DNA of 64,000 nucleotides from an uncultured bacterium (GTDB taxonomy: Bacteria > Omnitrophota > Omnitrophia > Omnitrophales > Aquincolibacteriaceae). Below are positions 2,837 to 40,854 of this stretch, one piece after another. The stretch's first letter is position 1, and each line of letters starts with the position of its first letter. Position numbers and translations under genes: made by a program. Under the pieces are notes generated by a model, which was not told where the DNA came from, did no database searches, and worked only from the letters and a program-made list of their open reading frames with translations. The stretch is from assembly GCA_964410905.1 (NCBI GenBank), contig CAYPIR010000006.1:26052-90051 (forward strand). The letters are read 5' to 3'.

Positions 2837-3176
2837 AGCATCTTTAAGAATGGTTCTTTTTGTTGGGACATTTTTGTGGGTAGGGGTTTTTGCTGTTATT
2901 GCTTCAGAAGTTGTTTATGAGGCTGGAAAAAGACGGGATCCATTTGTTCCATTGGCGGACGAAGCCGGCGCTGAGCAGGCTGTAAGCGGGGGGGCTAAAC
3001 TCGAAGGGATTATTTATGATCCTTCTGGAAAATCCATTGCGGTTTTGAGTGGAAAAACATACATGGAAGGCGACAGCGTTGGGGACGCGAAGGTGCTTGA
3101 GATTTTTAAAGACCGTGTTGTTCTTGGAGTTGATAACGAAAGAAAAGAACTAAAATTGAGAAAAACAGATATTTAG
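2823..3176 (+). CDS. PilP-like small periplasmic pilus assembly protein
   Basis: Small protein with one hydrophobic anchor between the PilO-like gene and the secretin. Assignment is by synteny only. Confidence 0.35.
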   Translation: MEASRASLRMVLFVGTFLWVGVFAVIASEVVYEAGKRRDPFVPLADEAGAEQAVSGGAKLEGIIYDPSGKSIAVLSGKTYMEGDSVGDAKVLEIFKDRVVLGVDNERKELKLRKTDI

Positions 3177-3294
3177 CGCTGCCCGTCTTGTTTTATTAGA
3201 CAAAAAAATTTTAAATTGATTCTAAAAAATGTCGTTAATTTAGTAGCCTAGAAAATTTTTCTCTGTGTTATGATACTCGGACTGGAGATATTAA

Positions 3295-4893
3295 ATGATT
3301 GCATTGATTAAAAAAAGTTGCTTTGTGCTTTTTTCTTTAAGTTTTTTCATCGTGGGGAATTTTGCTTTTGCAGAAGACAGCGCTGCTTTAAACGAAATTG
3401 TTTTGGATGAAACTTCTCCCCAGGTTGCCGCAGAGAATGACAAGAAATTGCCCGCCGATAAAATGAATGATGATACGATAAGCCTTGATTTTAAAGACGC
3501 GGACATTAATACGGTTTTGCGCGTTTTGAGTATAAAGAGCGGAATGAATATAGTTACTGGCCCTGAGGTCGGCGGGCTTGTAACAGTTCGGCTGGATAAT
3601 GTCCCTTGGGAAAAAGCGCTGGATGTGATTTTGCGCACCTATGATTATGTTTTTGAAAGAGACGAGAATATTATCCGCATCACGACTCGCGACAAGATGG
3701 AACTTGAGCCCGTTGATACGAAAACATTTATTTTGAATTATTCAAAGGCAAATGAAATTCAATCGGCAGTTCAAGATATTTTGACCGAGCGTGGGAAGAT
3801 TAAGGTGGCACAGCGAACAAATATGGTTGTCGTGACGGATATTCCGACCAATCTCTACAAGATTGGCGAAATCATCGCTAGACTCGATCAACTTACGCCG
3901 CAGGCCTATATTGATTCGAAAATTATAAAAACTGGCACGTCAGTTGTAGAAAATATGGGTATTAAGTGGAACCCTACTGTAACTTTAACAGGTTCCAGCC
4001 GACCAACGACTTTTCCTTTTACGAACGATGACAAAAGCGCAAGTGGCTGGAGAAGCTTTTTTCCACAACTATCAGACGCTGGAGGCTCGACCACGACAAC
4101 GTCCACCGCTTCGACCAATCCATCAAGGTCTAGCGCATTTCCGCTTGCGCCGGTGAACACTAATGATGCGACATTTAATTATGGGACACTTGATTTCTCT
4201 AGTTTTTCCGCGACACTTCAAATGCTCAGGCAATCTTCGACAACAAAAATGATTTCTAATCCGCGAGTTGTCGTGCTTAACAATCAAACGGCGCATATTC
4301 AAGTCGGACAGGATTTTCCAATTCCTAAGTTTGAACGTAACGAGACAACGGGAAGTATGGTTGTGTCGGGTTACGATTATCGTCAGCTGGGAGTTGTATT
4401 GAATGTAACTCCGCATATTAATTCCGCGGCGGAAATTTTGGTAGACCTAAAGCCAGAAATTAGCAGTCAGGGAGGGATGGTTGATTTTATAGCGGGGCAG
4501 CTTTCGGCTCCGTCTTTTACGGTAACGAATGCTGAAACACAAGTTTTAATCGCGAGTGGACAGACCATCGCGATTGGCGGGCTTATGACTGATGAATTTG
4601 GTATGGAAGAAGCAAAAGTGCCTTATTTGTCTGACATTCCTTTACTTGGAAAACTTTTTCGCTCTAAACGTCAGGAGACAGGAAATAATAGCAAAGTTGA
4701 AACTCTCTTTTTTGTAACAGTTACGATGGTAGACTCGCAAGGACAACCTGCGGTCAGCAAAGTTGATGGGGACAATAATCCTCAACAAACCAAAGAAAAT
4801 TTGACTTCGCGCGATACGGCTGAAACGGGTGCCGGCGGGTCAACACAAACAACAGAAACGCAAGCGATACCTAATGATGCAGACAAAGTTTAA
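3295..4893 (+). CDS. pilQ: Type IV pilus/T2SS secretin (PilQ/GspD family) with an S/T-rich insertion and a low-complexity C-terminal tail
   Basis: Signal peptide. Secretin C-domain motifs (ISNPRVVVLNNQTAHIQVGQ..., VLIASGQTIAIGGL, PYLSDIPLLGKLF). S/T-rich segment around aa 230-320. Confidence 0.8.
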   Translation: MIALIKKSCFVLFSLSFFIVGNFAFAEDSAALNEIVLDETSPQVAAENDKKLPADKMNDDTISLDFKDADINTVLRVLSIKSGMNIVTGPEVGGLVTVRLDNVPWEKALDVILRTYDYVFERDENIIRITTRDKMELEPVDTKTFILNYSKANEIQSAVQDILTERGKIKVAQRTNMVVVTDIPTNLYKIGEIIARLDQLTPQAYIDSKIIKTGTSVVENMGIKWNPTVTLTGSSRPTTFPFTNDDKSASGWRSFFPQLSDAGGSTTTTSTASTNPSRSSAFPLAPVNTNDATFNYGTLDFSSFSATLQMLRQSSTTKMISNPRVVVLNNQTAHIQVGQDFPIPKFERNETTGSMVVSGYDYRQLGVVLNVTPHINSAAEILVDLKPEISSQGGMVDFIAGQLSAPSFTVTNAETQVLIASGQTIAIGGLMTDEFGMEEAKVPYLSDIPLLGKLFRSKRQETGNNSKVETLFFVTVTMVDSQGQPAVSKVDGDNNPQQTKENLTSRDTAETGAGGSTQTTETQAIPNDADKV

Positions 4894-12625: not shown

Positions 12626-14557
12626 CTACCAGTCTTTATCAATGTCAAAAACTTGTTCGCTTGGCGGCGGGCGGCGAAGCGCCTGCGTTTCTTTTTCCGA
12701 CTCCTTCAACGCGTCTAAGAGGTTTAACGCGTCTTGAAGTTTCATTTGCCCCTGAAGCGGCTGTTTTGCTTGGGCTTGCTGTTTTTGTTCATTTTGCTTT
12801 TCTTGTTCAGGCTTTGATTGCTGATTATCCTTGTCATTTTTGTCGGATTTTTTATCGTCTTGATTTTCAGAATTGTTTTGTGGATTTTCTTTGTCTTGGT
12901 TTTTTTGATCTTTTTGCTGCTGACTGGATTCGCCTTTATCTTGCTCGCCATCGTTTTTATCCTGTTGTTCTTTCGCTTGTCCCCCTTGACCTTGGCCAGG
13001 TTGATTTTGTTCATTTTGTTGATTTTTGTCTTGCTGCTGATTTTGTTGGTCTTGTTGTCGGTCTTTATTTTTGTCTTTGTTTTGTTGATTTTGCTTATCG
13101 TTTTGGCGTTCTTGGTCTTTTTTGTCCATCTCCCCTTTCTTCTTTTGAAGAAATTCGAGATTGTATTTTGCGTCTTGGTCATTGGGGTCGAGTTCCAAAG
13201 TTTTTTTGTATGATTGAATCGCTTTGTCGAATTCTCCCAATCTGTATTGAGTATTGCCAAGATTATAGAACGCTTTGGCTTGAAGACTGGGGGCAATTTT
13301 TTTCTGACTAGATGCCACAGAAAAATCCTTTGCGGCTTCTTGAAAAGAATCCGTCTTGTATAACGCCGAGCCGATGTTGTAGAGAATTTCAGGTGAGTCG
13401 GGATTCTTTACCTGCGCTTTTCGATAATTTTCTACAGCGGATTGATATTTTTTGTTTTTGAAATTCTCGTTCCCTTTTTCTACTACCCTTTTTGACGTTT
13501 CGATAAATCCTGAAAATAGAAAGAATGAAATTAGAACGGGCAGAATGGTTGAACTTTTCGCGTTTTGCCGCTTTATAAGCATTTCTAAAAGAAGAAATAG
13601 AAAGCCGATAAAGAGAAGCGTTTGATATTGGTCTTCCCTTTCTACAATGGTTTTTTCTTCAAACTGCTGCTCGCCCCAGTTGCGCAGGTGTTTTAAAACA
13701 AGGGCCGTCTCTTTTTCGCTTGGAGTCGCTGGCAAATATATTCCTCCAGTTTCGTTTGCCAAACGTTCAAGAAGAGGCTGATTAAGTTTTGTCAAAACCA
13801 ATTCCCCAGCGCGCGATTTTTTGAATCCCGTCCGTTCGCCTTTTGCATTTTTAAGAGGGATTGGTTCGCCTTCCTTTTTGCCGAGACCAATTGTGTATAT
13901 TCGAACATTTGCCCTTTTCGCATCAGCTATCGCTTCGTCTATTTCGCCGCCGTGATCTTCTCCATCACTAAAAATTATCAAGGCTTTATATTTTAATTCT
14001 TGTTGAGGAAACGCTCGAGTCGCGAGGCTAATGGCTTGGCTTAGAGATGTTCCGGGATCGGGTAAAAAACCCGGACTAACGGCATCTAAAAATAAAAGGA
14101 ATGCCGAGTGGTCGTGAGTAAGCGGAGTTTGTAAAAATCCCGAACCCGCAAAAGTTACCATCCCGATGCGGTCGCCGCGTAAACCTTCAATAAAAGTTTT
14201 GATTTCAAATTTGGATTTTTCAAGGCGGTTCGGCTTTGTGTCTTCGGCAAGCATTGAGAGAGATGTGTCAAGTAAGAAAATAATATCGACGCCTTTCCTT
14301 TGCGCCATTCGTTTTTCTTCTCCCCATTGCGGCCGCGCGGCGGCAAAAATAAAAAACAAAAAGGCGAGCAATACTAATATGCCCGAAAGTTTCCATTCGT
14401 TTTTCTTATAACCCGTGAGAAGTTTGTCCTGCAGTTCCGGACTTTGTACTAGTTTTTGCAATCTTTTTCGCCAAACCTTTCGTGAGATTGAATACAGTAT
14501 GGCTAGTATCGGAATTAGCCATAGAGCCAGCAAAAATTGAGGAGCGAAAAAGTGCAT
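12626..14557 (-). CDS. BatB/BatC-like aerotolerance protein: vWA domain, two TMs, TPR repeats and a Q/N/D/K-rich low-complexity tail of about 200 aa
   Basis: vWA MIDAS motif (DTSLSM), TPR-like repeats, extreme compositional bias in the last roughly 200 codons (nt 12626-13230). Confidence 0.7.
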   Translation of the reverse strand: MHFFAPQFLLALWLIPILAILYSISRKVWRKRLQKLVQSPELQDKLLTGYKKNEWKLSGILVLLAFLFFIFAAARPQWGEEKRMAQRKGVDIIFLLDTSLSMLAEDTKPNRLEKSKFEIKTFIEGLRGDRIGMVTFAGSGFLQTPLTHDHSAFLLFLDAVSPGFLPDPGTSLSQAISLATRAFPQQELKYKALIIFSDGEDHGGEIDEAIADAKRANVRIYTIGLGKKEGEPIPLKNAKGERTGFKKSRAGELVLTKLNQPLLERLANETGGIYLPATPSEKETALVLKHLRNWGEQQFEEKTIVEREDQYQTLLFIGFLFLLLEMLIKRQNAKSSTILPVLISFFLFSGFIETSKRVVEKGNENFKNKKYQSAVENYRKAQVKNPDSPEILYNIGSALYKTDSFQEAAKDFSVASSQKKIAPSLQAKAFYNLGNTQYRLGEFDKAIQSYKKTLELDPNDQDAKYNLEFLQKKKGEMDKKDQERQNDKQNQQNKDKNKDRQQDQQNQQQDKNQQNEQNQPGQGQGGQAKEQQDKNDGEQDKGESSQQQKDQKNQDKENPQNNSENQDDKKSDKNDKDNQQSKPEQEKQNEQKQQAQAKQPLQGQMKLQDALNLLDALKESEKETQALRRPPPSEQVFDIDKDW

Positions 14558-14560
14558 TTT

Positions 14561-15541
14561 TTAAGGAACCTTTAAAAGTAATGTTTTTTTAAGGAAAATA
14601 TCAAGAATTAAAAGTAAAAGCGCTGGAATTAAAAACCACAAAAAAAGTTCATCGAAGTGGCGATATTCTTTAACCTTTACTTCGCTTTTTTCTAGGTTGT
14701 TAATCCGTTCATAAATCTCTGATAATGATTTTGGATCGCGGGCTCGAAATTGAAGACCTCCCGTTATATCCGCTATTCGTTTCAAAGTCATTTCGTCAAT
14801 TTCTACAGGCGCTTGAACATAGCGTTTTCCAAGAAGAGGGTCATCAATTGGAAACGGGACAAGCCCTCCCCTGCCTACCGCGATTGTGTAAATTTTTATG
14901 TCGAAAGTTTTTGCCAATTCAGCCGCGGTTACGGGATCGATATTTCCGGCGTTATTTTCTCCGTCCGTAATAAGAATTATTACTTTACTTTTCGCGTCAG
15001 CATCTCTGAGCCTGTTGACAGAAGTGGCTATTCCCATGCCAATCGCGGTACCATCCGCAATCATTCCGACTTTAATTTCAGACAGAAGTTCGGTAAGCAC
15101 GCGATAATCCAGCGTCAGAGGACATTGTGTAAATGCCTTTTTGGCGAACACTACAAGCCCAATTCTGTCGTTTTCTCGTCCCTTTATAAACTTAATGGCT
15201 TCTTGTTTCGCGACATATAGACGGTTTTCGGGCTGAAAATCTTCAGCCAGCATGGAGCCTGAAATATCAAGCGCGATAACAATATCAACGCCGTATGTTT
15301 GAATTTCTTTTTCGCGCGAAATTATGGCTGGCCGCGCCAGCGCTATTATCAAGAGCGAAAGAATTAACACCCGCAAAAATGGCATAGATTGGTAAAAAAA
15401 CATACGTACGGTTACAGGGCTAGACTTGAAAAATTGAAATGTAGAGAATGGCAATTCAAGCCGCGTCCGTTTTTTCGCAATCAGCCAAACAATCGGCAGT
15501 ATAAAAAAGAGAAGAAAAAAAGCGGGGCTTCTAAAAATCAT
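14561..15541 (-). CDS. BatA-like vWA-domain membrane protein
   Basis: N-terminal TMs, vWA DISGSM MIDAS motif, ITDGENN motif. 4-nt overlaps with both neighbours. Confidence 0.75.
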   Translation of the reverse strand: MIFRSPAFFLLFFILPIVWLIAKKRTRLELPFSTFQFFKSSPVTVRMFFYQSMPFLRVLILSLLIIALARPAIISREKEIQTYGVDIVIALDISGSMLAEDFQPENRLYVAKQEAIKFIKGRENDRIGLVVFAKKAFTQCPLTLDYRVLTELLSEIKVGMIADGTAIGMGIATSVNRLRDADAKSKVIILITDGENNAGNIDPVTAAELAKTFDIKIYTIAVGRGGLVPFPIDDPLLGKRYVQAPVEIDEMTLKRIADITGGLQFRARDPKSLSEIYERINNLEKSEVKVKEYRHFDELFLWFLIPALLLLILDIFLKKTLLLKVP

Positions 15542-16488
15542 ATCCCTTCCTGCCCTTCTTCCGCTCGGTTATCGTCCGGCTCTGAAGCGGATTCTTTTAT
15601 AATTTCTTCAGAGTTTTTATTTATCGCGTTTGTTTCGGCCGCGGTAGGAATCCATTTCGCGAACTTTGCGAGGTCGGCAGATTCCAAAACATGTTGAATT
15701 TTTTGATATAGGGCTGATGAAAGGGACAGAGATTTTATTGAACGTAAAATTTCCGCAGTCGTTGCTTCTACAGCGAGGATTTTGTAGCGGCTTTCAAAAT
15801 AGACGCGAATAATTTCGGAAAGTTTCAGGTAATAAAGCTTTGTCTTTCCCGATTCTATGAGTCCTGAATGGAAAAGTTTTTCCAGTTCTTGTAGCGCGAT
15901 TTCCTCGGAGGTTTGTTTTGATTTTGGGGACTCATCAAATCTATTTTCCCTGATGCGTTTATATGCAAGAACAATTAAGAAAATAGTTAAAAACGCGACA
16001 GGCATCCACAAGTATTTTGAGATTTTCCATTCGAATGGGACAACGGACTTTATGTCTCTTATGTCGTTTTGAGGCGAGGTGCCGGCAACACTTTTTACAG
16101 TTAAATAAATTTTTTGACTTTGAATGGATTTTTTTTGCTCGTCTTTCTTTTGATATTCAATTTTAACTGGTGGCAAAACAAATTCTCCAAGCCTAAAAGT
16201 TGTCAGGACAAATTTTTTTCCTTCGATAATCCTTTTCTTTTGCTTTTTATTTATGTCTTCAACTTTTTTGATTTCAAGAATATCAGAATCAGGCGCAGAG
16301 ATAGCGGATAATATTTTTATGTCGGGACTATGCTCAATTGTTACGGTGTAATTAATATGTTCGCCAATAGTTAAAAACGCTTTATCCACTTCAGAACGGA
16401 CGCGTATGTCATCATCGGAAAATGCGTTTGCAATTATGGAAATGAAACAAACCAAAAACAGCAATAAAGTTAAAAAATATTTTTTCAT
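15538..16488 (-). CDS. BatD-like bitopic membrane protein (signal peptide, extracytoplasmic domain, TM, cytoplasmic domain)
   Basis: Architecture and operon position. Paralogous in layout to 18445-19302. Confidence 0.4.
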   Translation of the reverse strand: MKKYFLTLLLFLVCFISIIANAFSDDDIRVRSEVDKAFLTIGEHINYTVTIEHSPDIKILSAISAPDSDILEIKKVEDINKKQKKRIIEGKKFVLTTFRLGEFVLPPVKIEYQKKDEQKKSIQSQKIYLTVKSVAGTSPQNDIRDIKSVVPFEWKISKYLWMPVAFLTIFLIVLAYKRIRENRFDESPKSKQTSEEIALQELEKLFHSGLIESGKTKLYYLKLSEIIRVYFESRYKILAVEATTAEILRSIKSLSLSSALYQKIQHVLESADLAKFAKWIPTAAETNAINKNSEEIIKESASEPDDNRAEEGQEGI

Positions 16489-17357
16489 TTACGTTCTCTG
16501 CTTTTAAAAAAACGCATTAACGGATTGACGTAGGAATCTGTCGCGGCGACCTCAATTCGGTCAATTTGAAGCCGTTTAAAGAGCTTCTCTAGCGAGTTTC
16601 GCCAATTGTGAGTTTCCCGGCCGAAACGATTTTGGAACTGCGTTGACGAAGTGTCGAGCAAGATTGTTTTTCCTGTTTCTCGGTCTTGCGTTTCAAAAAG
16701 TCCAACACGGGGAATTTCGTGTTCAAGAGAGGCGTTTAGATGAATTGCTACCACGTCATGTTTTTGACTCAAAATTTTTAAAGGTTTCTCGTAATTTTTA
16801 TCCAAAAAATCAGAAATCAAAAAAATAATGGACGAACGAGCTTGGACACGAGATAAAAATTCCAAGGCTCCGGCTAGATGAGTGCCGCGCTTTTTAGGCT
16901 GATAGCCTAAAATTTCACGGATAATTCTTAAAGTGTGATTGCGCCCTTTTTTTACAGGTATGAATTTTTCGACCTCCTCCGTAGAAATAAGCATTCCAAC
17001 TTTATCATTATTTTTTACCGCGGAAAAGGCGAGGATGGCGGCGATTTCGGCCGCGATTTCGGATTTGAGTTTGTCGATTGAGCCAAAATATTGCGAACCT
17101 GACATATCTACAACAAAAATGACTGTAAGTTCGCGAGTTTCAACAAACTTTTTGACAAATGGGTGCTGGCTGCGAGCCGTAACATTCCAATCGATTGTGC
17201 GTATGTCGTCGCCCGGGACGTATTCTCGAACATCCGCGAATTCAATCCCCTGCCCTTTAAAAACGGATTCGTATTCGCCGCCGAAAAGATCGTTTACAAG
17301 TCTCTTGGTGCGTATTTCGATGTGGCGTACTTTCTTAAGCAGTTCTGCGGGAATCAT
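16485..17357 (-). CDS. DUF58 domain protein (vWA-like, MoxR partner)
   Basis: GQGIEFADVREYVPGDDIRTIDWNVTAR motif characteristic of DUF58. Confidence 0.7.
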   Translation of the reverse strand: MIPAELLKKVRHIEIRTKRLVNDLFGGEYESVFKGQGIEFADVREYVPGDDIRTIDWNVTARSQHPFVKKFVETRELTVIFVVDMSGSQYFGSIDKLKSEIAAEIAAILAFSAVKNNDKVGMLISTEEVEKFIPVKKGRNHTLRIIREILGYQPKKRGTHLAGALEFLSRVQARSSIIFLISDFLDKNYEKPLKILSQKHDVVAIHLNASLEHEIPRVGLFETQDRETGKTILLDTSSTQFQNRFGRETHNWRNSLEKLFKRLQIDRIEVAATDSYVNPLMRFFKSRERK

Positions 17358-17391
17358 CGCTTGAGGTCTCTCTTATGGCTGATGTTTAAAG

Positions 17392-18381
17392 TTACGGCAC
17401 CTCAATTTGATCAAATATTTTTTTGACTAAATCATCAGATGTGATGTCTTCGGCTTCGGCCTCATATGTAACCAGAATACGATGCCTCAGGACATCAGAG
17501 CCGATTTGTTTTACATCGTCAGGAGTTACGTAGGCGCGGCCTTGCAAAAACGCGTTTGCTTTCGCGGCGAGAGTTAACATTATGCTAGCGCGTGGCGAAG
17601 CGCCATATGAAATAAGCGGTTTTAAATCATTTAGTTTGTAGTCTTGCGGGTCGCGTGTCGCAAAAACCAAGTCTAAAATATAATCCTTCACTTTTTCATC
17701 TATATAGATTTGTCTGACCAGTTCACGCAGCTCTAATATTTTTTCAATATTCATTACGGGCAAGACTTCGGTTTTATCTGCGATGGCTTGACGTTCTAAA
17801 ATTTCTTTTTCTTCCTTTTTGCTTGGATATCCGACAATGAGTTTCAACATAAAACGGTCGACTTGGGCTTCGGGTAGCGGATAAGTTCCCTCTTGCTCGA
17901 TAGGGTTCTGAGTCGCAAGAACGAGGAATGGCACGGGGAGCGGGAATGTTTCGTTGCCGATTGTAACTTGTCGTTCTTGCATTGCTTCGAGAAGCGCGCT
18001 TTGAACTTTCGATGGGGCGCGGTTGATTTCGTCCGCCAAAATAATATTGGAAAAAATGGGACCTTTTTTAGTCGTGAAATTGCTGTCTTTAGGATTGTAA
18101 ACAAGTGTTCCAATTACATCCGCGGGCAGAAGATCGGGGGTAAATTGAATTCTTTGAAATTGCGCCGAAACCGCTTGTGAAAGGGTCCTGACGGATAAAG
18201 TTTTGGCAAGACCAGGGACACCTTCAATTAAGATATGTCCGTCCGCGAGTATGGCTATCATGAGTCGATCGACAAGATATTGCTGTCCCACAATTACTTT
18301 GCCGATTTCACGCGTGAGGTCTTTAATATGAGAATTTGCTTCACGGACTTTTGCGTTGATTTCTTGAATGGAGCCGGACAT
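17392..18381 (-). CDS. moxR: MoxR-family AAA+ ATPase
   Basis: GHILIEGVPGLAKT Walker A context and full MoxR-family pattern. Start moved to the internal Met (MSGSIQEINAK). Confidence 0.85.
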   Translation of the reverse strand: MSGSIQEINAKVREANSHIKDLTREIGKVIVGQQYLVDRLMIAILADGHILIEGVPGLAKTLSVRTLSQAVSAQFQRIQFTPDLLPADVIGTLVYNPKDSNFTTKKGPIFSNIILADEINRAPSKVQSALLEAMQERQVTIGNETFPLPVPFLVLATQNPIEQEGTYPLPEAQVDRFMLKLIVGYPSKKEEKEILERQAIADKTEVLPVMNIEKILELRELVRQIYIDEKVKDYILDLVFATRDPQDYKLNDLKPLISYGASPRASIMLTLAAKANAFLQGRAYVTPDDVKQIGSDVLRHRILVTYEAEAEDITSDDLVKKIFDQIEVP

Positions 18382-18444
18382 AGTGAAATCTCCTTTTCGT
18401 GCGAGAGTGATGAGTTTCAAAAGTAACTAGAGAGAGAAAACAAA

Positions 18445-22224: not shown

Positions 22225-25200
22225 TTACTGAACCGTCCTTGTAACTTTTGATATTTTCATCTCTCCGCGAGATTTTGATAAATCATCAGGCCAAATAACT
22301 TTATTATTTTTAAGCGTTGCTCCAACCACTCCTTCCATAGCTTGACGAAGCATCCAACCCGCCGCGCCCGTATATCCATGCCAAATCATACGGCCCGGCT
22401 CATACGTGGTTAAAAGGTCTGCGGATTGTTTGTTAGGTTGTCCGCCATAAATCTCAATTTCGTTCATGTGAGAAATAGGCGAAATCTTCAACCAAAGGCG
22501 ATATGCGGTCGCGCGATACTGTTCCGCGCTTGCCGAGTCGCCCCGCTTTTCAAACTCTTCAGCCAAAAGCCGCGCGGCGCGGACAAGCCACTGAACTCCG
22601 TGGCAATACATACCGTTTTCCCGAACGCCTTCAGGATATTTACTGCTGCGCCCAAGATACGGTTTTGTGTCTTCGCGAAGCGCCGGCCAGCCGAGTAAAA
22701 TCGCGTTGTCTTTTTCCAACACTTGAAGTGCTGTGTTGAAAATTGTGACACCGCGTTCAAAATTAATACCTGACATAACAGACCAAGCGGCAGTCAAAGC
22801 GTCAATTTCCCACACGCCGCTGCCTTTAAGCCCGATTTCCGTTCCGTCATCGTGAAATGCGCGCAAATAACGGTCATCACGCCAAGTTTTTTCAAGGGCA
22901 ACTTTGAGCGCTTCTATTTTGTCTTGATAAAACTTCTTTTTCGCGTCACCCTCTTTTTTGCCGATTATGCCGACCATTTCTTTGAGAATATAATAAAGGA
23001 AAAAGCCAAGCCATACACTTTCGCCAATTCCTTCGCCACCAATCTCATCAAGCCCGTCGTTCCAATCGCCTACTCCCATAAGAGGTAAGCCGTTTCTGCC
23101 TGAGCGCTGCTTGATAACCAAATCAATTGAACGCATGCAGTGCTTATATAAGGTGTCGGAGCGAGTTGTTCTGTGATACATATGTCCCCAACCTTGTTTG
23201 TTTTTAGGAAGCTGAGCGAAGGGAAACTCAGAGACCATATAAGATTCCATTTCGTCAAGAATGGATTCATCGCCTGTGGCGCGGACATATTCTACAGCGC
23301 CCCAAGCAAGCCACAGCGGATTGTCGGACGCGTGGGAACGGCATGAAAAAGATGTCCGCCCGTCCGGCAATGTAAAGAACCAATGGTTCACATCGCCTTC
23401 AACAAACTGCTGCGCGGCGTGCAAGAGAATTTGTTTGCGCGCGAGCGCGGGATTTATCCAAATTAAATTGACAGTATCCTGCAATTGATCGCGGAAACCA
23501 AACGCGCCGCTAGTTTGATAAAAACCGCGTCGTGCCCAAATGCGTTCGGCAAGCGCTTGATACTTTAGCCAATTTTGATAGTGGTCAAACTCAGGCTGAT
23601 TGGTTTCAACTTTGAGAGTTCCCATCAAATTTAGCCACCACGACCGCGTCGCGTCAAGTTCTTTACGGACAAGATCAAGGTTCTTATATTTTTGGACAAG
23701 TTCAACAGCGTGCTTATGATTTTCAGTTTGTCCCAAAACAATAGCGACCGTAACTTCGCCTTGCGCCGGAATCTCAACAGTTCCGACAAAACCAGCGATT
23801 TGCGCAGAATCCGTGATTTGCGTTGTGTCAGGAGTATCGTTTTCAACTATATAGGGACGCTTTATGCCGCGGCCTGTTCCAAAAAAACGACCGCGTTTCG
23901 TTTCTACACAGTCGGCGGGAACAGACATAGAGGCAAATGCCCAACCCGGCCGGAAAAAGTTACGCGGATTCTCAAAATAAAGAGCGTCTGAAGCCTTGTC
24001 GTGTTTTACTTGAAGCGGTCCTGAGCGTTCTGGTTGAAATGAAAGCGCTATCTGAAAATACGGCGCGACTCGTAATTTGCGCGGAGTGTTTTCATCATTT
24101 TTAAGCGTCAAAAGATAAACGCCAAGAGGATCTTCTGTCGGGACATAAACCGTTAGACGCGAAGAGAGAGACCCGTCTTTCATCGTAAAAACCGCCGTGC
24201 CGTCAACGCTGAATTCCGCCTCGTGATGAGCGTTGTTGTCATTTAACGGTTGATATGTCGGCGAATACCATTCATCTCGGTCTGAGTCATAAAGATAAAT
24301 CGCTTCTGATGGGACCTCTTTTGTCGCCGTGTCAGGCCAATCAGGCGTTAAACGGTTTTGTTGTGAGTTCCCGTTACACGATGTGTGAAGCCCGCGATTT
24401 GTAACCATTACGGAATGCATTGGGTTCGACATCGCGTGGTCAAATGGACGCGGTGTATATGGAGTCAAAACTTTGAGAGTGTTTCCATCCTCAGAGTATT
24501 GATAGTAAGGCTGAGGTGTTCCAGATGGGATTTCGCCATGCCCGATTAAAAGTTTGCGGGCGGGCTTTTCAGATATAACCGAACGAGGCGCGGGATTAGG
24601 TTTGAGATATTTTTCGATTGTGTCCAGAGCGCCTTGTTTGTTTTTGGAGTAACCAATAATCATTTTAAATGACGCTGAGCTGTGCGGAGATACAGTCTCA
24701 GATACAAGAAGGCTGCCGATCGGATCAAATGTCGGATAACCTTTCATATCTTGCGCGGGTAAAAAGTCAAAAATTTCAAGCGCGCGCGGCTGCCAAACAC
24801 TTCGTCCGCGGCCGATAAAATCCACGCGTCCCGTATGCAAACCTTCGGGAGCGACATCGGTCGCCATAAAGCCGGTGGATTTTGTGCTTTTCTGCCAAGT
24901 AACAATGGCGTTGGATTTTGCGACATATTCCATTTCGGGATAAAGCCGCGCGTATTGAGTGTGAAATCTGTCGTGCATTCCTCCGTTTAAAACCCATTCA
25001 AGATATGGGACAACTTTTAAGTGGCGGGTTTTTTCGGATTGGTTTTCAATAGAAATATTCCAAATTTCCGCAGTAGCGGTTGAAGTTGGAATCGTAATAG
25101 TTACGACGGCTTTTACGCCATGACTTACATTCGTGATGACAATGCTTTCATCTTTGCGCTCGACATTGGATGGAACAAATTCTTCTGACGGAAAATTTCC

Positions 25201-28200
25201 CGTAATTGGCCACGCGAGAGGTCTGCCTTCAGTTCCGCCGGTCTCATCAACTATGAATAGAATGCGTCCCGATGGGTCTATTTGGTCGTAGGAACGGCGT
25301 GAAATATCGCATTCCTTTCCAATGAGTTCAGAATAAATTTCGCCATTTTGTTTGGCTACAACTTTATATTCACAATTGGCGATTTCATTTGCTTGGATTT
25401 GCCGCGCGGCAGATTTGGATCTTAGGATGCGCGTAATAAAAGAAATTATCGTGCAAACAAGAACGCCCGCGATAATCCATAGCAAAAGTTGCGCGAATGG
25501 CAGGGCCTGTAAAGCCGGTATAAGCCCCTTTCCGCGAAGAGAGTTTTGAATGTTTTCCGCTTTGCTCCACACTTCGTCCCATTGTTCTCCGCGAGGGATA
25601 TAAAACGGGATTAGCAGCGGCGCCCAAGTTGTAAAACGTTTTACGCCTTCCGGAATATAACGCTGAGCGGAGGCTTTCCCGATAAATTTAGAAACCTTTT
25701 CATCGAGTTTTTCCATTCCTAAGAAACTCAAATTCACCAGCGTCGCGACGCGAAGTCCCATGTGATCCATCCAAATCAAAATACGGAAGAAATCAAATGC
25801 CAAAATCCACACAAACATCTTAAGACTCCACGCCACAAAATCAGGGGCGGACATAGTTATATTGTTATAAATCGCGAACAATGTGCGGATGGCACCGTCT
25901 TGGTTATACCAAGTTGGATTAGGCATCATACGAAGGAATGTGTAGATGATAGGCGACATCCAAAGGCCCCATCGCAACACATGAATCATAAGTTCGCTGA
26001 GCTGCGCAAGACCGGCCTTGGAAAAGAAGAATTTAATGGGGGCTTTATCTTTGTCGAAGAATGCTTGTAAGAAAACTTTGTTTACCGCGAAAAGCCAAGT
26101 CGCGACCGACCATTTAATGACCCCGTCCAGCGATTCTGTGAAAAGAAGTTTTACGCCGCCCGTGCATTTTCCTAAGTCAATCATTCCCCATTTGCTTAAA
26201 AGAACAGGTTGAACATAATGTCCCAAATCGTTTAAGTAAGGATATACGGTGGTGGACATTTCCCCAAGATGATTAAACGCGGGATACGCGTTGCACTGAG
26301 CGGTTGTGAAATAAGTTGTTACATAAAGGTTTAGCTTGTAAATAATTACCGAAACTTGCGGAACATCAAGATAAAACGCGACTGCGCCGCCAAGAAAAAC
26401 GCCTAGAATTGAGTCGATAAAATAAAGCCGCCAAGTTTGAACTTTCCCTTGATGACGAATCGAATAATAAATATCGCGTAAAAGACTTATTCCGCCGGAA
26501 GCAATAAAACCGATTATGGCTCCAAGCCAAACGCGTTCTGACATGGATTTTTCGATATAACCTTGCGAAATTAAATACGCGAGTCCGGCACCCGCGATTG
26601 CCCCGCGGAAGTAAAGCGTTTTGCTCCTGTAGCTATAGGCGGCACGTTCAAAGAAAGGCAAACTTCCATCAAATGTTTCAATAATAGTTTTTACGAACGG
26701 GAAAAGAAGCATTCCGCCCAATGTTCCAATTACATAGGGGAAAGACGCCATCACGTTTTGTGAAACCGGCGCTTTAAAAAGCATTGAAATAAGATAAAGG
26801 ATGGCAATCAATATACCGCTGTAAGCCATACCTTTTTTAATGCCGCCGGAAACATTTTTGACAATGCTGTCCGCGGTCGGCGCAATGCGTTTCCCGCCGT
26901 CAAGAAGAATACCTGTTATTAAATAAACCTCGCCCCAAAGTCCTCCGAACGACAGGATTGTAGTCGCAAGCGCGACAAGAGCGCGAACAATTTCAGGCAA
27001 TTTTGCTACCATTGCCGAGGACCCAAAATCCGCGATTGAAGGAGCAATTACTACGGCAAGCGAAACAAGAAAAATATAGAGATGCGCTTTGAGGGTTGGC
27101 ACAACGCGTTCTTTCGTGGCGTAAGAAATTCCGTTCGCGAGAAGTTCATTGAATAAAAACACAACGGCTAGTCTGCCTAAAAATTCCAACGCGTTTGGAA
27201 AAGTCGCAAGAACACCAAAAGAAAAATTGTAAGTAAGCGTTTGGAGAAGTGTAACATTTTCAAGAAGCAGCAAAATGCCTACTAGATAAGGCGTCCCGAC
27301 AATAAGAGCCGCGGCGATTGGTTTTGTGCTTCTCCCAAAAGAAGAAAAGTTATGGACATTAAAAATCTGGTAAATAAAAAACGCGACTATTGCCGTGAGT
27401 TTATTAATCATCAAAAGATGTATCCACGAAGTCGGAATTTGTAAAAGTTCAAGGCTGCTGGCGGATGCCGCCAGTAGACCGGCGACAAAAACATTTTGGA
27501 AAGTTTCTGCGGCGGTGATCGCTTTGCCCGCCAAAACACATTTCATCCAAGCCGCGATGATGCCGCCCAAAAGTCCTATTAATAAAATCTTTGTAATTAG
27601 ACAAGTTCCCGAAATGGATGTTCTCCCAAGCGAATAAATCCAAAGCCCTGTGCCGATAACCAGGACGGTCATTAACCCGTATAAGAAATCTTTTTTGAGG
27701 CGTGAAAAAATCGACTCGCCTTTTGGTGAAATAATGTTCAGATTTTTATCTGATTCTTTTACAAAGACGCGTTTAATGAAATTTGACATGAACGGCAAAA
27801 TGACCGCGAGTATCAGGGAGAGCAAAATAACCGCGCCGAACTTAATTCCAACAAAAAAGCGTTGAGTGAAACTTTCATTAAAAAAATCCATTCCTAAATA
27901 TAAAGTGCCCTTTGAAATCTCTTTTGATTTTGGCGTAATTACAAAGTTGACTTCTTTTAGATCACCCAATTTCTGCCAATCAATAGTCTTGCGGATGGTA
28001 TTCCAGCCCGGTTTTATTCCAAGAGCGAAATCTTGCGTTGCCGATGCTCCTACGAGTTCGACCTTTGTTGATACTTCCCTGAGCTGTCTTGCTTCAAGAG
28101 CGCGAAAACCAATTTCGATAGTGTTTACATGAGTAGACTTTAAATCCTCAGGAAAATTTTTTGTCGAAATTGTTATTGGATTTCCTTCAACAAACGTATA

Positions 28201-29154
28201 CGCGAAATCGTAAACGTCTTTTCTCGCTTCATCATCAAAGGAAAAATTAATGGAACCTTTTGACGCGCCAACTCCCGAAACGCTTTTTGCGCTAGCGTCA
28301 AGAAGTCCGAAGAATGTTCGAGCAGAGGGCTGCATTTTGGGTTTTGCCGCGACTGGAACAATTTCTTTGGCTTTTTCTTTTACAATGGAAGGTGCTGTCT
28401 CGGCAGTTTTTTTGCGCTCCGCAAAAGGTTTTTTCGTGGCGAATTTTGTGGTTTTTTTCGTGTCCTTCGCAATTGTTGCGGTTTTCTCAGAAATAGTTTC
28501 GACCGTTTTTGCCGCTTCGGATTTCACCTCGGAAAGCTTTTTTGTCGTTTTGGCGATAATTGAATCATTCAATTCAAAACTAATTGCCAAAGTTCCTTTT
28601 ACAGTCAAATTCTTTAAGGATTTGACTTTAAATGAAACATTATTCAAAATACCGATTTTTGCCCAGTCGATTTTTTCTTGAAATACTGTCCAGCTGGATT
28701 TGAGCTTTAGAGGTATGACTTGAGTTCCGCTATCACCATTCAACTCCGCATTTACTGAAATCTCTTGAAGCTGAGAATCTTGGAAAACCTTCGCTTCGAT
28801 TTTTATGGCGCTGACAGAAGTTGAAACCAGTTTTTGCGAGAATTTTTGAATTTTTACGGCAACGGATGTTTTGGGCATCGCGACATAATCAAACTCCAAA
28901 ATGTCTTTTTTCGTCTCCTCATCAAAAGTTAAACTCTGATTTCCTTTCGATGCTCCAGTCGCAACGACTTCACGAGATGCACCGTCAATAATTGTTATCG
29001 GCGCTTGCGCGAAAGATGTGGCTGCGACTATGGTCAATAAAAATAAAAAACCAAAAACTTTTAAAAGTTTTTGGCTCGGCAAGTTAGAGGAAAGGGATGA
29101 AAGAGATTTGCAAATCTGTCGCATGGATTTTATCCTGTTGTTAAGGGTTGACAC
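22225..29154 (-). CDS. Giant 2309-aa multidomain envelope protein: signal peptide, two tandem beta-sandwich-like repeats, polytopic membrane domain of about 800 aa, cytoplasmic GH94-like glycoside phosphorylase region (cyclic beta-1,2-glucan synthase / cellobiose phosphorylase type)
   Basis: Uninterrupted 6.9 kb ORF. Hydrophobic run aa 31-50. Repeats aa about 51-196 and 281-426. Roughly 20 or more hydrophobic segments across aa about 433-1245. C-terminal GAFGFRDQLQD and GVGDWNDGLD motifs typical of the GH94 catalytic (alpha/alpha)6 domain. Confidence 0.6.
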   Translation of the reverse strand: MSTLNNRIKSMRQICKSLSSLSSNLPSQKLLKVFGFLFLLTIVAATSFAQAPITIIDGASREVVATGASKGNQSLTFDEETKKDILEFDYVAMPKTSVAVKIQKFSQKLVSTSVSAIKIEAKVFQDSQLQEISVNAELNGDSGTQVIPLKLKSSWTVFQEKIDWAKIGILNNVSFKVKSLKNLTVKGTLAISFELNDSIIAKTTKKLSEVKSEAAKTVETISEKTATIAKDTKKTTKFATKKPFAERKKTAETAPSIVKEKAKEIVPVAAKPKMQPSARTFFGLLDASAKSVSGVGASKGSINFSFDDEARKDVYDFAYTFVEGNPITISTKNFPEDLKSTHVNTIEIGFRALEARQLREVSTKVELVGASATQDFALGIKPGWNTIRKTIDWQKLGDLKEVNFVITPKSKEISKGTLYLGMDFFNESFTQRFFVGIKFGAVILLSLILAVILPFMSNFIKRVFVKESDKNLNIISPKGESIFSRLKKDFLYGLMTVLVIGTGLWIYSLGRTSISGTCLITKILLIGLLGGIIAAWMKCVLAGKAITAAETFQNVFVAGLLAASASSLELLQIPTSWIHLLMINKLTAIVAFFIYQIFNVHNFSSFGRSTKPIAAALIVGTPYLVGILLLLENVTLLQTLTYNFSFGVLATFPNALEFLGRLAVVFLFNELLANGISYATKERVVPTLKAHLYIFLVSLAVVIAPSIADFGSSAMVAKLPEIVRALVALATTILSFGGLWGEVYLITGILLDGGKRIAPTADSIVKNVSGGIKKGMAYSGILIAILYLISMLFKAPVSQNVMASFPYVIGTLGGMLLFPFVKTIIETFDGSLPFFERAAYSYRSKTLYFRGAIAGAGLAYLISQGYIEKSMSERVWLGAIIGFIASGGISLLRDIYYSIRHQGKVQTWRLYFIDSILGVFLGGAVAFYLDVPQVSVIIYKLNLYVTTYFTTAQCNAYPAFNHLGEMSTTVYPYLNDLGHYVQPVLLSKWGMIDLGKCTGGVKLLFTESLDGVIKWSVATWLFAVNKVFLQAFFDKDKAPIKFFFSKAGLAQLSELMIHVLRWGLWMSPIIYTFLRMMPNPTWYNQDGAIRTLFAIYNNITMSAPDFVAWSLKMFVWILAFDFFRILIWMDHMGLRVATLVNLSFLGMEKLDEKVSKFIGKASAQRYIPEGVKRFTTWAPLLIPFYIPRGEQWDEVWSKAENIQNSLRGKGLIPALQALPFAQLLLWIIAGVLVCTIISFITRILRSKSAARQIQANEIANCEYKVVAKQNGEIYSELIGKECDISRRSYDQIDPSGRILFIVDETGGTEGRPLAWPITGNFPSEEFVPSNVERKDESIVITNVSHGVKAVVTITIPTSTATAEIWNISIENQSEKTRHLKVVPYLEWVLNGGMHDRFHTQYARLYPEMEYVAKSNAIVTWQKSTKSTGFMATDVAPEGLHTGRVDFIGRGRSVWQPRALEIFDFLPAQDMKGYPTFDPIGSLLVSETVSPHSSASFKMIIGYSKNKQGALDTIEKYLKPNPAPRSVISEKPARKLLIGHGEIPSGTPQPYYQYSEDGNTLKVLTPYTPRPFDHAMSNPMHSVMVTNRGLHTSCNGNSQQNRLTPDWPDTATKEVPSEAIYLYDSDRDEWYSPTYQPLNDNNAHHEAEFSVDGTAVFTMKDGSLSSRLTVYVPTEDPLGVYLLTLKNDENTPRKLRVAPYFQIALSFQPERSGPLQVKHDKASDALYFENPRNFFRPGWAFASMSVPADCVETKRGRFFGTGRGIKRPYIVENDTPDTTQITDSAQIAGFVGTVEIPAQGEVTVAIVLGQTENHKHAVELVQKYKNLDLVRKELDATRSWWLNLMGTLKVETNQPEFDHYQNWLKYQALAERIWARRGFYQTSGAFGFRDQLQDTVNLIWINPALARKQILLHAAQQFVEGDVNHWFFTLPDGRTSFSCRSHASDNPLWLAWGAVEYVRATGDESILDEMESYMVSEFPFAQLPKNKQGWGHMYHRTTRSDTLYKHCMRSIDLVIKQRSGRNGLPLMGVGDWNDGLDEIGGEGIGESVWLGFFLYYILKEMVGIIGKKEGDAKKKFYQDKIEALKVALEKTWRDDRYLRAFHDDGTEIGLKGSGVWEIDALTAAWSVMSGINFERGVTIFNTALQVLEKDNAILLGWPALREDTKPYLGRSSKYPEGVRENGMYCHGVQWLVRAARLLAEEFEKRGDSASAEQYRATAYRLWLKISPISHMNEIEIYGGQPNKQSADLLTTYEPGRMIWHGYTGAAGWMLRQAMEGVVGATLKNNKVIWPDDLSKSRGEMKISKVTRTVQ

Positions 29155-38519: not shown

Positions 38520-39371
38520 CTAAGCTTTTACAGCCTCCCAAATCCGGATCATTTCGGTTTTTAAAACGCCATTTGTGTGTTCCGTAACAGGTCTTCTCGC
38601 AATGACGGATTCAATAACAGCGCGATCGAAGGGTATTTTTCCGATCACGGGAATCTTTTGTCCTTCGCAAAAATGTTCGATTTTTTCAGAGGCTTCCGGA
38701 TTAATATCCCATTTGTTGATCACCAACCTGACCGGCACTTTAAAATGCGCCGCCAATTCGATCACCCTTTCGACATCGTGAAGGCCTGAAAGTGTTGGTT
38801 CGGTCACGACCACCGCGAGATCCACACCCGAAAGAGAAGCGATTACAGGGCATCCGATCCCCGGAGGACCATCAACGATTACATATTCCGCTTGAGTTTT
38901 TTCGGCGAGTTCTTTAGCGGTTTGTCGCACCTTCGCGACAAGCTTTCCAGAATTTTCTTCTGCAATTCCAAGTTTGGCGTGCACAAAAGATCCGTAGGGT
39001 GTTTCGGAAATAAACCACTCTCCTGCCGTATTTTCCTGCATGCGGATCGCATTCACCGGACACAGTCGCGCACAGAGACCGCATCCTTCACAATTAATCG
39101 GGCTCACGGCAAACTCCAAGCTGATGGCCTGAAAGCGGCAAGCGGCTTTACACTCGCCGCAACCCGTGCACAGAGACGGATTAATCTTGGCAAAAGCCCC
39201 GCTTCTGAAAGGATGCCGTTCTTTTATGGAGGAACCCAATAAAAGATAGAGATTCGCGGCGTCAACATCACAGTCCGCCATGACCTTGTTCTCTGCCAAG
39301 GTAGCAAAGGCTCCGGTGAGCATGGTTTTCCCCGTGCCACCTTTCCCGCTGATCACGACGATTTGCTTCAT
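38520..39371 (-). CDS. MinD/Mrp-like P-loop ATPase with an inserted 2x[4Fe-4S] ferredoxin domain
   Basis: GKGGTGKT Walker A, CTGCGECKAAC and CEGCGLCARLCP cluster motifs. Confidence 0.8.
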   Translation of the reverse strand: MKQIVVISGKGGTGKTMLTGAFATLAENKVMADCDVDAANLYLLLGSSIKERHPFRSGAFAKINPSLCTGCGECKAACRFQAISLEFAVSPINCEGCGLCARLCPVNAIRMQENTAGEWFISETPYGSFVHAKLGIAEENSGKLVAKVRQTAKELAEKTQAEYVIVDGPPGIGCPVIASLSGVDLAVVVTEPTLSGLHDVERVIELAAHFKVPVRLVINKWDINPEASEKIEHFCEGQKIPVIGKIPFDRAVIESVIARRPVTEHTNGVLKTEMIRIWEAVKA

Positions 39372-40210
39372 GCTCTCACCTTCGATGTCCCAAGTATAAA
39401 TTTGAAAAGGTCTAGAAATTTCTCCCGATATTCCGGCAATTGTTCAACAAAAGGAACCCCCGCAGAATAAAGTTCTGCGATTTTCCGGTCAAAAGGTATT
39501 TGAAGCATTACTGGAATCTCATGAGCCTTGAAATGGATCCGGGTTTTCAGATCGTGCGGTTCCGTCCGGTTCATGACAACTCCGTAAGGGATTTTAAGTT
39601 TCTTAACGGTTTCGATTGCGAGCTCGAGATCATTCATCCCGAAGGGTGTGGGTTCTGTGACCAAAATACAAAAATCACTTCCTTTCACAGCCGTCACCAT
39701 GGGGCATGAAGTACCCGGTGGTGCGTCAATAATCGTCATGCATGACCGGTCGATATGCGACTTGACTTGTCGAATAAGCGGAGGAGCCATAGTTTCACCC
39801 ACGGCAAGTTTCCCCTGAATAAAATCAATACCTCCCCTCTGCCCTATTTCAATTTCACCGATCGATCGGTCCACCTCCCGGATGGCTCCTTTGGGACACA
39901 GACGAGTGCAGGCTCCGCAGCTATGGCACATTTTGGGAAAAAAAAGAACCTTTTGGGGAAGGACTGCCAGCGCGTGATAGGCGCAAACTTCCTGGCATTT
40001 CCCGCAAAAATCGCACTTGGCATAATCTATCTCTGGGACTCGAACCGTTGCCGGTTTTCGATCGGTTATATTAGCTTTTAGAAATATCTGCGCATTGGGT
40101 CCCTCAACATCGCAATCGAGAAGCTGAGCGTGTTCTAGGGAAAGCGCCAGATTCACCGCCACTGTCGTTTTTCCGGTACCTCCTTTGCCGCTTGCCACCG
40201 AAATAATCAT
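39368..40210 (-). CDS. MinD/Mrp-like P-loop ATPase with 4Fe-4S ferredoxin domain (second paralog)
   Basis: SGKGGTGKTT, CDFCGKCQEVC and CHSCGACTRLCP. Start moved to MIISVASGKGG. Confidence 0.8.
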   Translation of the reverse strand: MIISVASGKGGTGKTTVAVNLALSLEHAQLLDCDVEGPNAQIFLKANITDRKPATVRVPEIDYAKCDFCGKCQEVCAYHALAVLPQKVLFFPKMCHSCGACTRLCPKGAIREVDRSIGEIEIGQRGGIDFIQGKLAVGETMAPPLIRQVKSHIDRSCMTIIDAPPGTSCPMVTAVKGSDFCILVTEPTPFGMNDLELAIETVKKLKIPYGVVMNRTEPHDLKTRIHFKAHEIPVMLQIPFDRKIAELYSAGVPFVEQLPEYREKFLDLFKFILGTSKVRA

Positions 40211-40854
40211 TGCGGTTTCTCTGCAATGATCGTTTGATGAAAGGAAGTTGTTGATTTTCTTACAAGAAACTTTTTTTTTCGAAGATAAGTTGCAGCCCAC
40301 GGCATCGTGACCGTGCCTTTACCATGCGTATTTTCTTCAAGAGCATGGATCTGTTCCATGGTTTTAAATCCCTTTTCCGTAAAATCACTCAGGATTAGCT
40401 TCCCTCCGGGCTTAAGAACGCGGATGAGTTCGTCCAGGACCTTGTGGGGCTGGATAAAATGGTGGAGGGTATTGATGGAGAAAACCATGTCGTAGCATTC
40501 GTCTTTAAAGCTTAAGTGTTCTCCGTTCTCCACGCGAAGATCCGCAAAATCGTCTAAAAGTTGAAATTTCAGATAAAGCTTTGCAAGATCGCGCTCTTTT
40601 TTCGAAATATCAAAACTGGTGAAGGTCAGGCCGCGCTTTGCCAAGGCGCTCGCAAAATGCCCCTTTCCTGTACCTGCTTCGAGTATTCTCCCGCGCAACG
40701 GAGAGGCTTGTTCAAGGATCACTTCCCGTTCTCTGTCGAGGTTGTAGCCGAACTTTAAGAACATTTTTTTGCGTTCAAATATCCGTCTCAACGCCGGCGA
40801 CAGCTCAGGGAGAATCTTGCTTTTCTTGGAAACTCGTATCGGATCAATTTTCAT
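40207..40854 (-). CDS. Class I SAM-dependent methyltransferase
   Basis: ILEAGTGKGHFA (motif I), LKPGGKLIL. Start moved to the internal ATG (MKIDPIRV). Confidence 0.65.
   Translation of the reverse strand: MKIDPIRVSKKSKILPELSPALRRIFERKKMFLKFGYNLDREREVILEQASPLRGRILEAGTGKGHFASALAKRGLTFTSFDISKKERDLAKLYLKFQLLDDFADLRVENGEHLSFKDECYDMVFSINTLHHFIQPHKVLDELIRVLKPGGKLILSDFTEKGFKTMEQIHALEENTHGKGTVTMPWAATYLRKKKFLVRKSTTSFHQTIIAEKPQ

Follow-up and report, generated by a model that had tools for sequence, protein, structure and literature searches.

Cyclic beta-1,2-glucan synthases (Cgs) are marked by a GT84 (GT2-like) glycosyltransferase (GT) domain that has a priming Tyr loop as well as catalytic Asp residues, and, in the same chain, by a central cyclization domain with a GH144-like (alpha/alpha)6 fold. 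Their GP region begins at residue 1536 and consists of GP1, GP2 and GP3 plus a Rossmann-like insert (RFL, 1847-2012) between GP1 and GP2; GP1-GP3 have been equated with LpSOGP and, without the RFL, have the layout of a soluble 1,2-beta-oligoglucan phosphorylase (SOGP); D2393 and D2528 are the residues mutated in a GP-inactive Cgs construct (PMC10901819). We analysed a 64,000-nucleotide stretch of DNA (the window) from an uncultured Omnitrophota bacterium, in which a genuine open reading frame (ORF), by far the longest of its region, encodes a protein of 2309 aa with a C-terminal GH94 phosphorylase module. Here we describe how this giant protein resembles Cgs in its GP region and departs from it everywhere else, as the module is joined to exported N-terminal domains (N-domains) and to a large helical membrane domain for which we found neither a family nor a fold. 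Literature searches turned up no description of this architecture.

The GH94 module is of the Cgs type

A Pfam scan of the whole protein returned two families only, PF06165 in two stretches (E = 1.4e-67) and PF17167 (E = 2.3e-63), both far above their gathering scores. This bears out the original prediction of a GH94-like C-terminal region, with GAFGFRDQLQD at aa 1883 and GDWND at aa 2029. The best solved relative of the module was Agrobacterium tumefaciens Cgs (E = 8e-105), whereas cellobiose phosphorylases reached ∼1e-37; in bit scores, this corresponds to 355 bits to Cgs GP versus 130 bits to cellobiose phosphorylase. In phmmer alignments, aa 1250-1491 matched Cgs 1536-1777 and aa 1566-2286 matched Cgs 2050-2756, and the GP1-GP2 interval measures ∼75 aa here versus ∼270 aa in Cgs. 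As the alignment starts at Cgs 1536, the window protein contains a complete GP1-GP2-GP3 module, from which the RFL is absent. D1889 (GFRDQLQD) aligns with Cgs D2393 and the catalytic D2033 (GDWND) with Cgs D2528, and R1888, D1889, D2033 and H2185 are invariant in 71 relatives. Because these four residues are invariant and both Cgs Asp positions are kept, the phosphorylase is predicted, with near certainty, to be active. At the level of sequence, this confirms a bona fide GH94 module of the Cgs type in the ∼1060 C-terminal aa, and its closeness to Cgs GP, together with the GH144 and GH189 neighbours in relatives, suggests specificity for beta-1,2 linkages.

Relatives of the protein are named 'cyclic beta-1,2-glucan synthetase' or 'glycosyl transferase family 36' by automated sources, and its best PDB match is Cgs, as would be expected of an ordinary Cgs. 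However, the similarity to Cgs is limited to the GP region (1536 to the end). Residues 1-1245 gave no alignment to Cgs even at E≤10, and a cyclization (CY, GH189) domain was not found, as there was neither a PF10091 match nor an alignment to Cgs 979-1535. The RFL insert and the Cgs membrane region are likewise missing, and a structural model of the membrane domain did not match the Cgs structures 8rf0 and 8rf9, both of which were in the libraries searched. A GT84 domain, with which the protein would be an ordinary Cgs according to the original prediction, was found by none of Pfam, phmmer and Foldseek. We therefore rejected an ordinary Cgs, which we consider extremely improbable.

The membrane domain is without a match among described families and solved folds

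No GT family was detected by Pfam in the window protein at E≤1 or in five diverse relatives at E≤0.01, in which GH94 was the sole match, and an NCBIfam scan of the whole protein gave no match at all. The motif QxxRW is absent, and the protein contains a single DxD (DKD at 1034). This accords with the earlier claim that there is no GT84-type domain and no QxxRW motif. An AlphaFold model of aa 433-1245 built from 60 sequences was confident (mean pLDDT 90, pTM 0.89) and all-helical except for two short hairpins; it supersedes a model from a 16-sequence alignment that was too poor to use (pLDDT 56). When the model was compared with 350,542 PDB chains, Foldseek returned nothing at E≤1e-3. The best row was a membrane pyrophosphatase (E = 0.05, TM-score 0.13), and MurJ and MATE entries were among the weak rows (E 0.4-1.5, TM-score 0.07-0.14). 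A sequence profile of the membrane domain found no PDB chain at E≤10, and hhalign between thirds of the domain revealed no internal duplication. By the tests run, the membrane domain appears to belong to no described family or solved fold, and it is indeed the novel, unexplained part of the protein that it had been taken for.

Three known kinds of membrane protein were considered and rejected. GT-C enzymes are marked by a membrane fold whose first extracytoplasmic loop bears an acidic residue for catalysis; as Pfam, Foldseek and a motif check found no GT-C fold or motif, the suggestion that the domain may be GT-C-like was not upheld. A processive GT2 synthase such as BcsA or OpgH is contradicted by the lack of PF00535, PF13632 and QxxRW and by a model that is all-helical save for short hairpins. 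MOP flippases (MurJ, Wzx, MATE) have a two-lobed fold of 14 transmembrane (TM) passes, or 12 in MATE, and this candidate failed on the Foldseek values given above, on the absence of a Pfam match and on the absence of an internal repeat.

An invariant (H/Y)VLRWGLW motif on an amphipathic helix superficially resembles the QxxRW of processive GT2 synthases. There is no GT-A domain around it, and the likeness is probably coincidental.

Topology and conservation argue for more than an anchor

The topology was derived from the hydropathy of the model helices and from the K+R counts of the loops, averaged over 60 relatives. We predict ∼19 TM passes in aa 433-1245, with a clean alternating charge pattern that places the N-domains outside and the GH94 module inside, in the cytoplasm. 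TM1 to TM14 are followed by a periplasmic hairpin region with D930, Q933 and KWG, then by TM15 and a segment that is amphipathic, rich in Trp and likely to add three passes, and the last TM by a basic stretch. As aa 931-1245 (∼300 aa) are amphipathic, contain 4.1% Trp and have just two or three clearly hydrophobic spans, an earlier description of the domain as hydrophobic throughout with around 20 helices was right about its helical nature and overstated its hydrophobicity. Relatives of ∼1830 aa that lack the N-domains also lack TM1; therefore, the core would be an 18-TM unit with both ends inside, and TM1 would merely connect the exported domains to it.

Near-invariant polar and aromatic residues lie over both membrane faces. 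Among them, a cytoplasmic loop holds ETFDGSLPFFER, TM13 ends in LRD, and the second part of the domain contains (H/Y)VLRWGLWMSP, PTWYNQDG and DHMGLRVATLVNLSF; the motifs of this second part also include a KWG(R/M)IDLG hairpin. Given this strong conservation, with its many invariant residues, the membrane domain is likely more than an anchor, which argues for a catalytic or conducting role. Specific to the window protein is an insert of 26 residues, AFNHLGEMSTTVYPYLNDLGHYVQPV, within the periplasmic hairpin region; the insert is missing in seven of seven close relatives aligned and forms the sole low-pLDDT, disordered stretch of the AlphaFold model.

The fusion is obligate in relatives, which occur in several phyla

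A word-indexed search found 15 relatives, all fragments from Omnitrophota metagenome-assembled genomes (MAGs). When a profile was run exhaustively with HMMER against 1.84 billion representatives, 661 proteins passed a threshold of E≤1e-3 and 290 of these also passed E≤1e-30; many are full-length (1700-2250 aa). When one genome per GTDB species was scanned, relatives were present in 504 species genomes, mostly Omnitrophota, with a minority of Elusimicrobiota, Planctomycetota, Auribacterota, Chlamydiota, FCPU426 and 'Deltaproteobacteria' MAGs; the closest match among the species representatives was 76% identical, so that the window stems from an Omnitrophota species outside this set. A survey of 87 related loci provided 64 complete genes. 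The GH94 module was present in 62 of these, the two exceptions being ORFs split mid-gene, so that the fusion of GH94 to the membrane domain is obligate in the relatives. The N-domains, in contrast, are dispensable (0 to 4 copies per relative), whereas the membrane core is always kept. In several MAGs, the giant gene appears as two or three adjacent ORFs (L065, L067, L077, L090 and the two loci in Table 1), which may reflect frameshifts, assembly errors or real splits.

The N-terminus carries a Sec-type signal, as judged from sequence reading and hydropathy (h-region aa 30-48, then ...SFA/QAP). The two exported domains behind it are homologous, with 32% identity over 149 aa (E = 4e-29), in agreement with the duplication that had been proposed, and the linker joining them is rich in K, T, A and E. 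A profile of 22 N-domain sequences had no PDB match, and Pfam scans of the 22 members singly (E≤10) gave nothing significant (best E 0.025). By hhalign, the N-domains show weak similarity to CBM11-like domains of secreted proteins encoded next to the giant gene in relatives (probability 36-49%, E 2-4e-4), which makes carbohydrate binding by the N-domains plausible.

Neighbouring genes in related loci link the family to beta-1,2-glucan

No neighbour was present in the majority of the 87 related loci. The commonest cluster of neighbours (39 copies in 18 loci) comprised secreted proteins or lipoproteins with a GH144-fold domain, a carbohydrate-binding module (CBM)-like domain or both. In ∼11 loci, from Omnitrophota and from MAGs labelled Planctomycetia, the gene order is fixed. 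A ∼203-aa secreted CBM-like protein comes first, followed by a ∼760-aa secreted protein matching endo-beta-1,2-glucanases (8xul, 7e-66; 5gzh, 1e-42) and a TPR/YfiO-like protein. The giant gene is fourth and precedes a ∼688-aa secreted protein that matches the CGS cyclization domain of T. italicus (8wy1, 2e-44) and the CY domain of A. tumefaciens Cgs (978-1099, 1e-42). Two ABC sugar permeases and, in eight loci (for example L036), a ROK protein complete the set. In ∼10 loci, the fifth gene starts 17-100 nt past the giant gene or overlaps its stop (L081). On the complete chromosome CP070780.1, the operon opens with a solute-binding protein and a soluble 790-aa GH94. CBM11-like proteins also belong to the recurrent operon.

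The cyclization-domain homologues are stand-alone secreted proteins (signal peptide or lipobox) with an N-terminal CBM-like domain, found directly after the giant gene in L036, L040, L043, L044, L049, L050, L055, L062, L065 and L081. To our knowledge, a periplasmic version of the Cgs cyclization domain has not been described.

Downstream of the homologue in L005 come a lipoprotein of 700 aa with no known family (present too in L019, L087 and L089), OpgG (MdoG), an ORF of 199 aa and an OpgH-like GT2. No other locus ties the family to genes of periplasmic glucan biosynthesis. Because of the Cgs-type GP module, the GH144- and GH189-like neighbours and this single OpgGH locus, the family is likely linked to beta-1,2-glucan.

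One reading of the protein is a membrane-tethered phosphorylase. Here, the membrane domain would be sensory, regulatory or scaffolding and would conduct no sugar; GH94 would degrade cytoplasmic sophoro-oligosaccharides near the importer, and the task of the membrane domain and N-domains would be to sense the osmotic state or glucan in the periplasm, or to dock partner proteins. A pore in the membrane domain is hypothetical, exported domains resembling ligand-binding ones together with a cytoplasmic output module recall sensor layouts, and the operons of relatives already have a separate ABC importer. Nonetheless, 18 to 19 TM passes with dozens of invariant polar and aromatic residues across phyla go beyond what an anchor or sensor needs, and the size and conservation of the core make such a role less likely. 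Moreover, it is the exported domains that come and go among relatives and never the membrane core, the GH94 fusion is obligate, and, given the soluble GH94 that the operon already has, another one that was simply tethered would be redundant. We regard a tethered phosphorylase as quite improbable.

In another reading, the main rival to the model that we favour below, the protein would be a split glucan synthase or exporter without GT84, with beta-1,2-glucan made on the cytoplasmic face and exported by the membrane domain. The maker would be either GH94 running in reverse from glucose-1-phosphate (Glc1P) or the membrane domain as an unrecognized GT, with GH94 controlling the length, as it does in Cgs; once in the periplasm, the glucan of relatives would be cyclized or remodelled by the secreted GH189-like protein. 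The Cgs-type GP module with its GP1, the closely spaced cyclization-domain gene downstream in ∼10 loci and the OpgG and OpgH-like GT2 genes in L005 would all fit, as would the conserved acidic residues in cytoplasmic loops (ETFDGSLPFFER) and the invariant (H/Y)VLRWGLW motif. GH94 enzymes are also reversible, and an SOGP makes polymer from Glc1P in vitro (PMC3960220). However, the protein has no GT-A, GT-B or GT-C fold or motif, and the operons in question also hold an ABC sugar importer, a soluble GH94, ROK and endo-glucanases, a catabolic set. Phosphorylases in cells normally run degradatively. Furthermore, synthesis by Cgs does not need the GP catalytic residue (PMC10901819). An envelope polysaccharide synthase, as had been proposed for this protein, is without direct support, as there is no GT signature anywhere in it, and we judge a split synthase to be unlikely.

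A proposed model of uptake coupled to phosphorolysis

We tentatively favour, as possible rather than established, a model in which the protein is a glucan conduit coupled to cytoplasmic phosphorolysis, working in the direction of uptake. It corresponds to the translocating phosphorylase that had been proposed as one option. A linear beta-1,2-glucan chain would cross the inner membrane along a path formed by the membrane domain. In the periplasm, the N-domains would hold the glucan, and its non-reducing end would reach the cytoplasmic GH94 site, where the chain would be shortened one glucose at a time with phosphate to give alpha-glucose-1-phosphate. A single polypeptide would thus couple uptake to a breakdown that saves energy, which we refer to as vectorial phosphorolysis. 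In relatives, beta-1,2-glucans from the periplasm or from foreign sources would be opened or cut by the secreted GH144-type and GH189-like enzymes, and the ABC importer and soluble GH94 would deal with short products. We favour this direction because the recurrent operon is catabolic (endo-glucanases, CBM proteins, ABC importer, soluble GH94, ROK), because of the usual degradative direction of phosphorylases and because the exported modules, whose number varies as that of accessory binding modules does, resemble substrate-capture devices.

Several observations weigh against uptake-coupled phosphorolysis. The beta-1,2 specificity is drawn from similarity to Cgs GP, and phmmer gave no direct match to a solved SOGP. 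The hhalign probability behind the CBM nature of the N-domains is low, and the pore and glucan binding are putative. The cyclization-domain homologue so tightly coupled downstream fits a biosynthetic 'split Cgs' equally well, and in L005 the giant gene stands beside biosynthetic OpgG and an OpgH-like GT2. Finally, glucanase- and CBM-like neighbours occur in only 18 of the 87 loci, so that the operon evidence comes from a sub-clade, and within the 64-kb window there are no GH144 or GH189 homologues (tblastn) and no ABC sugar genes.

That the protein stands for a new class of conduit, which draws periplasmic beta-1,2-glucan through the inner membrane and turns it into Glc1P as the chain emerges, seems less likely than not, though with a substantial chance, and the same applies to a categorically new mechanism. 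We know of no precedent for vectorial phosphorolysis, which would amount to group translocation for polymers. If it were true, host-dependent Omnitrophota and their relatives might harvest the periplasmic glucans of Gram-negative prey or partners. A conduit joined to a phosphorylase would, if confirmed, be a new way of moving and using a polysaccharide, without ATP and with the bond energy kept as Glc1P, and would give a large new membrane fold its first function. For annotation, the name 'cyclic beta-1,2-glucan synthetase' is a systematic error in hundreds of cases from Omnitrophota, Elusimicrobiota, Planctomycetota and others, as the proteins so called have no synthase and cyclase domains. 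The family also points to beta-1,2-glucan as a substrate or product of weight in phyla of poorly understood lifestyle, and the secreted cyclization-domain homologues are candidates for new beta-1,2-glucan-active enzymes.

Gene boundaries and the window

An ORF of this length with an exported N-terminus, a membrane domain and a GH94 region had been described from the sequence, and these main points all proved correct; it is near certain that the giant protein is an inner-membrane protein in which exported domains, a helical membrane domain and a GH94 module are fused. The ORF can be read from a GTG, but an ATG ten codons downstream is more likely the true start, because an AGGA resembling a Shine-Dalgarno sequence lies 8 nt upstream of it at the right spacing (Table 1).

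In the window, the giant gene has dnaK and a HAD-family gene as its neighbours but stands by itself, with a spacer of 324 nt upstream. None of ten flanking ORFs compared is syntenic with relatives, so that the surroundings offered no clue. Its GC content (0.46, versus 0.40-0.48 elsewhere in the window) gives no indication of horizontal transfer. The other window ORFs scanned have housekeeping functions (RNase T, MiaB-like, type IV pilus/secretin, RNase E/G, Bat/MoxR, sigma-54, purine synthesis). After the type IV pilus genes come RNase E/G, a CCA/polyA polymerase family gene and an AsmA-family gene, which fits a diderm envelope. The window also contains a Bat/MoxR-type aerotolerance operon and two neighbouring genes, in both of which a MinD/ParA-type P-loop NTPase is joined to 4Fe-4S ferredoxin domains. 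Outside the window, in L006, an ORF of at least 6770 aa, which belongs to the very long proteins of Omnitrophota, lies directly downstream of a 2499-aa homologue and runs off the locus. Immediately upstream of the homologue is a Wzx-like Polysacc_synt gene.

Table 1. Coordinates of the giant gene, its parts and other features, in the window unless a related locus is named
Feature	Coordinates	Strand	Residues and remarks
Whole ORF	22225..29154	-	2309 aa from GTG 29154; probable ATG 29124 gives 2299 aa
Signal peptide region	29011..29124	-	aa 11-48; charged n-region, h-region VFGFLFLLTIVAATSFA, A-x-A-like SFA/QA cleavage site
Exported N-domain copy 1	28549..29007	-	aa ∼50-202; no known family; weak profile similarity to CBM11-like domains
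Linker between N-domains	28321..28548	-	aa ∼203-278; low-complexity
Exported N-domain copy 2	27859..28320	-	aa ∼279-432
Membrane domain, part 1	26365..27858	-	aa 433-930; TM1 to TM14; cytoplasmic loop ETFDGSLPFFER at aa 826-837
Membrane domain, part 2	25420..26364	-	aa 931-1245; amphipathic, Trp-rich, most conserved stretch; final TM aa 1223-1241
Insert AFNHLGEMSTTVYPYLNDLGHYVQPV	26200-26280	-	aa ∼958-985
(H/Y)VLRWGLW motif	25966-25986	-	aa 1057-1063
GP1, first GH94-type beta-sandwich	24655..25419	-	aa ∼1246-1500; aligns with Cgs 1536-1777
GH94 supersandwich domain	23731..24456	-	aa 1567-1808; PF06165
GH94 catalytic (alpha/alpha)6 domain	22321..23640	-	aa 1839-2278; PF17167
Type IV pilus assembly genes	529-4893	+	PilM-like through secretin
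Bat/MoxR-type operon	12626-18420	-	MoxR AAA+ ATPase, DUF58, BatD-like, BatA/VWA, VWA+TPR protein
Two NTPase-ferredoxin genes	38520-40300	-	
Split giant gene, L081	9237-15469		
Split giant gene, L049	9338-15434		
Secreted GH189 homologue, L081	15466-17490		
Secreted GH189 homologue, L040	15465-17531		
Homologue and OpgGH genes, L005	15978-22449	+	
Homologue and very long ORF, L006	17989-27500	+	

Comparison with known systems

Like Cgs, the window protein is a giant inner-membrane protein with a cytoplasmic C-terminal GH94 region that comprises GP1-GP2-GP3 and keeps both of the Asp residues mutated in the GP-inactive construct. In contrast to Cgs, it has no Cgs N-terminal domain, GT84, CY (GH189) or RFL. 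It has ∼19 predicted TM passes of an unrelated fold where Cgs has six, and it adds exported N-domains; in some relatives, the CY homologue is a separate secreted protein. With the SOGPs (Lin1839 of Listeria innocua, LpSOGP of Lachnoclostridium phytofermentans) and other soluble GH94 enzymes it shares the supersandwich and (alpha/alpha)6 domains, an extra GP1-like N-terminal sandwich and gene clusters with ABC sugar importers. Those enzymes, however, are soluble, cytoplasmic and ∼800-1100 aa long, whereas in the window protein a huge membrane domain is permanently attached to the module.

BcsA and OpgH likewise combine, in one chain, a cytoplasmic sugar-active module and a membrane part that could conduct glucan, and OpgH handles beta-1,2-glucan. 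However, they work with a GT2 GT-A domain (D,D,D,QxxRW) and nucleotide sugars, of which there is no trace in the window protein, and their membrane parts have no structural similarity to its own. GT-C enzymes and MOP flippases (MurJ, Wzx, MATE) are also large polytopic helical proteins of envelope glycan pathways, yet they differ from the window protein in that there was no sequence-family match and only weak Foldseek rows with TM-scores of about 0.1. Overall, the GH94 module is of a known kind, whereas the membrane domain and its obligate fusion to a phosphorylase without a glycosyltransferase are new.

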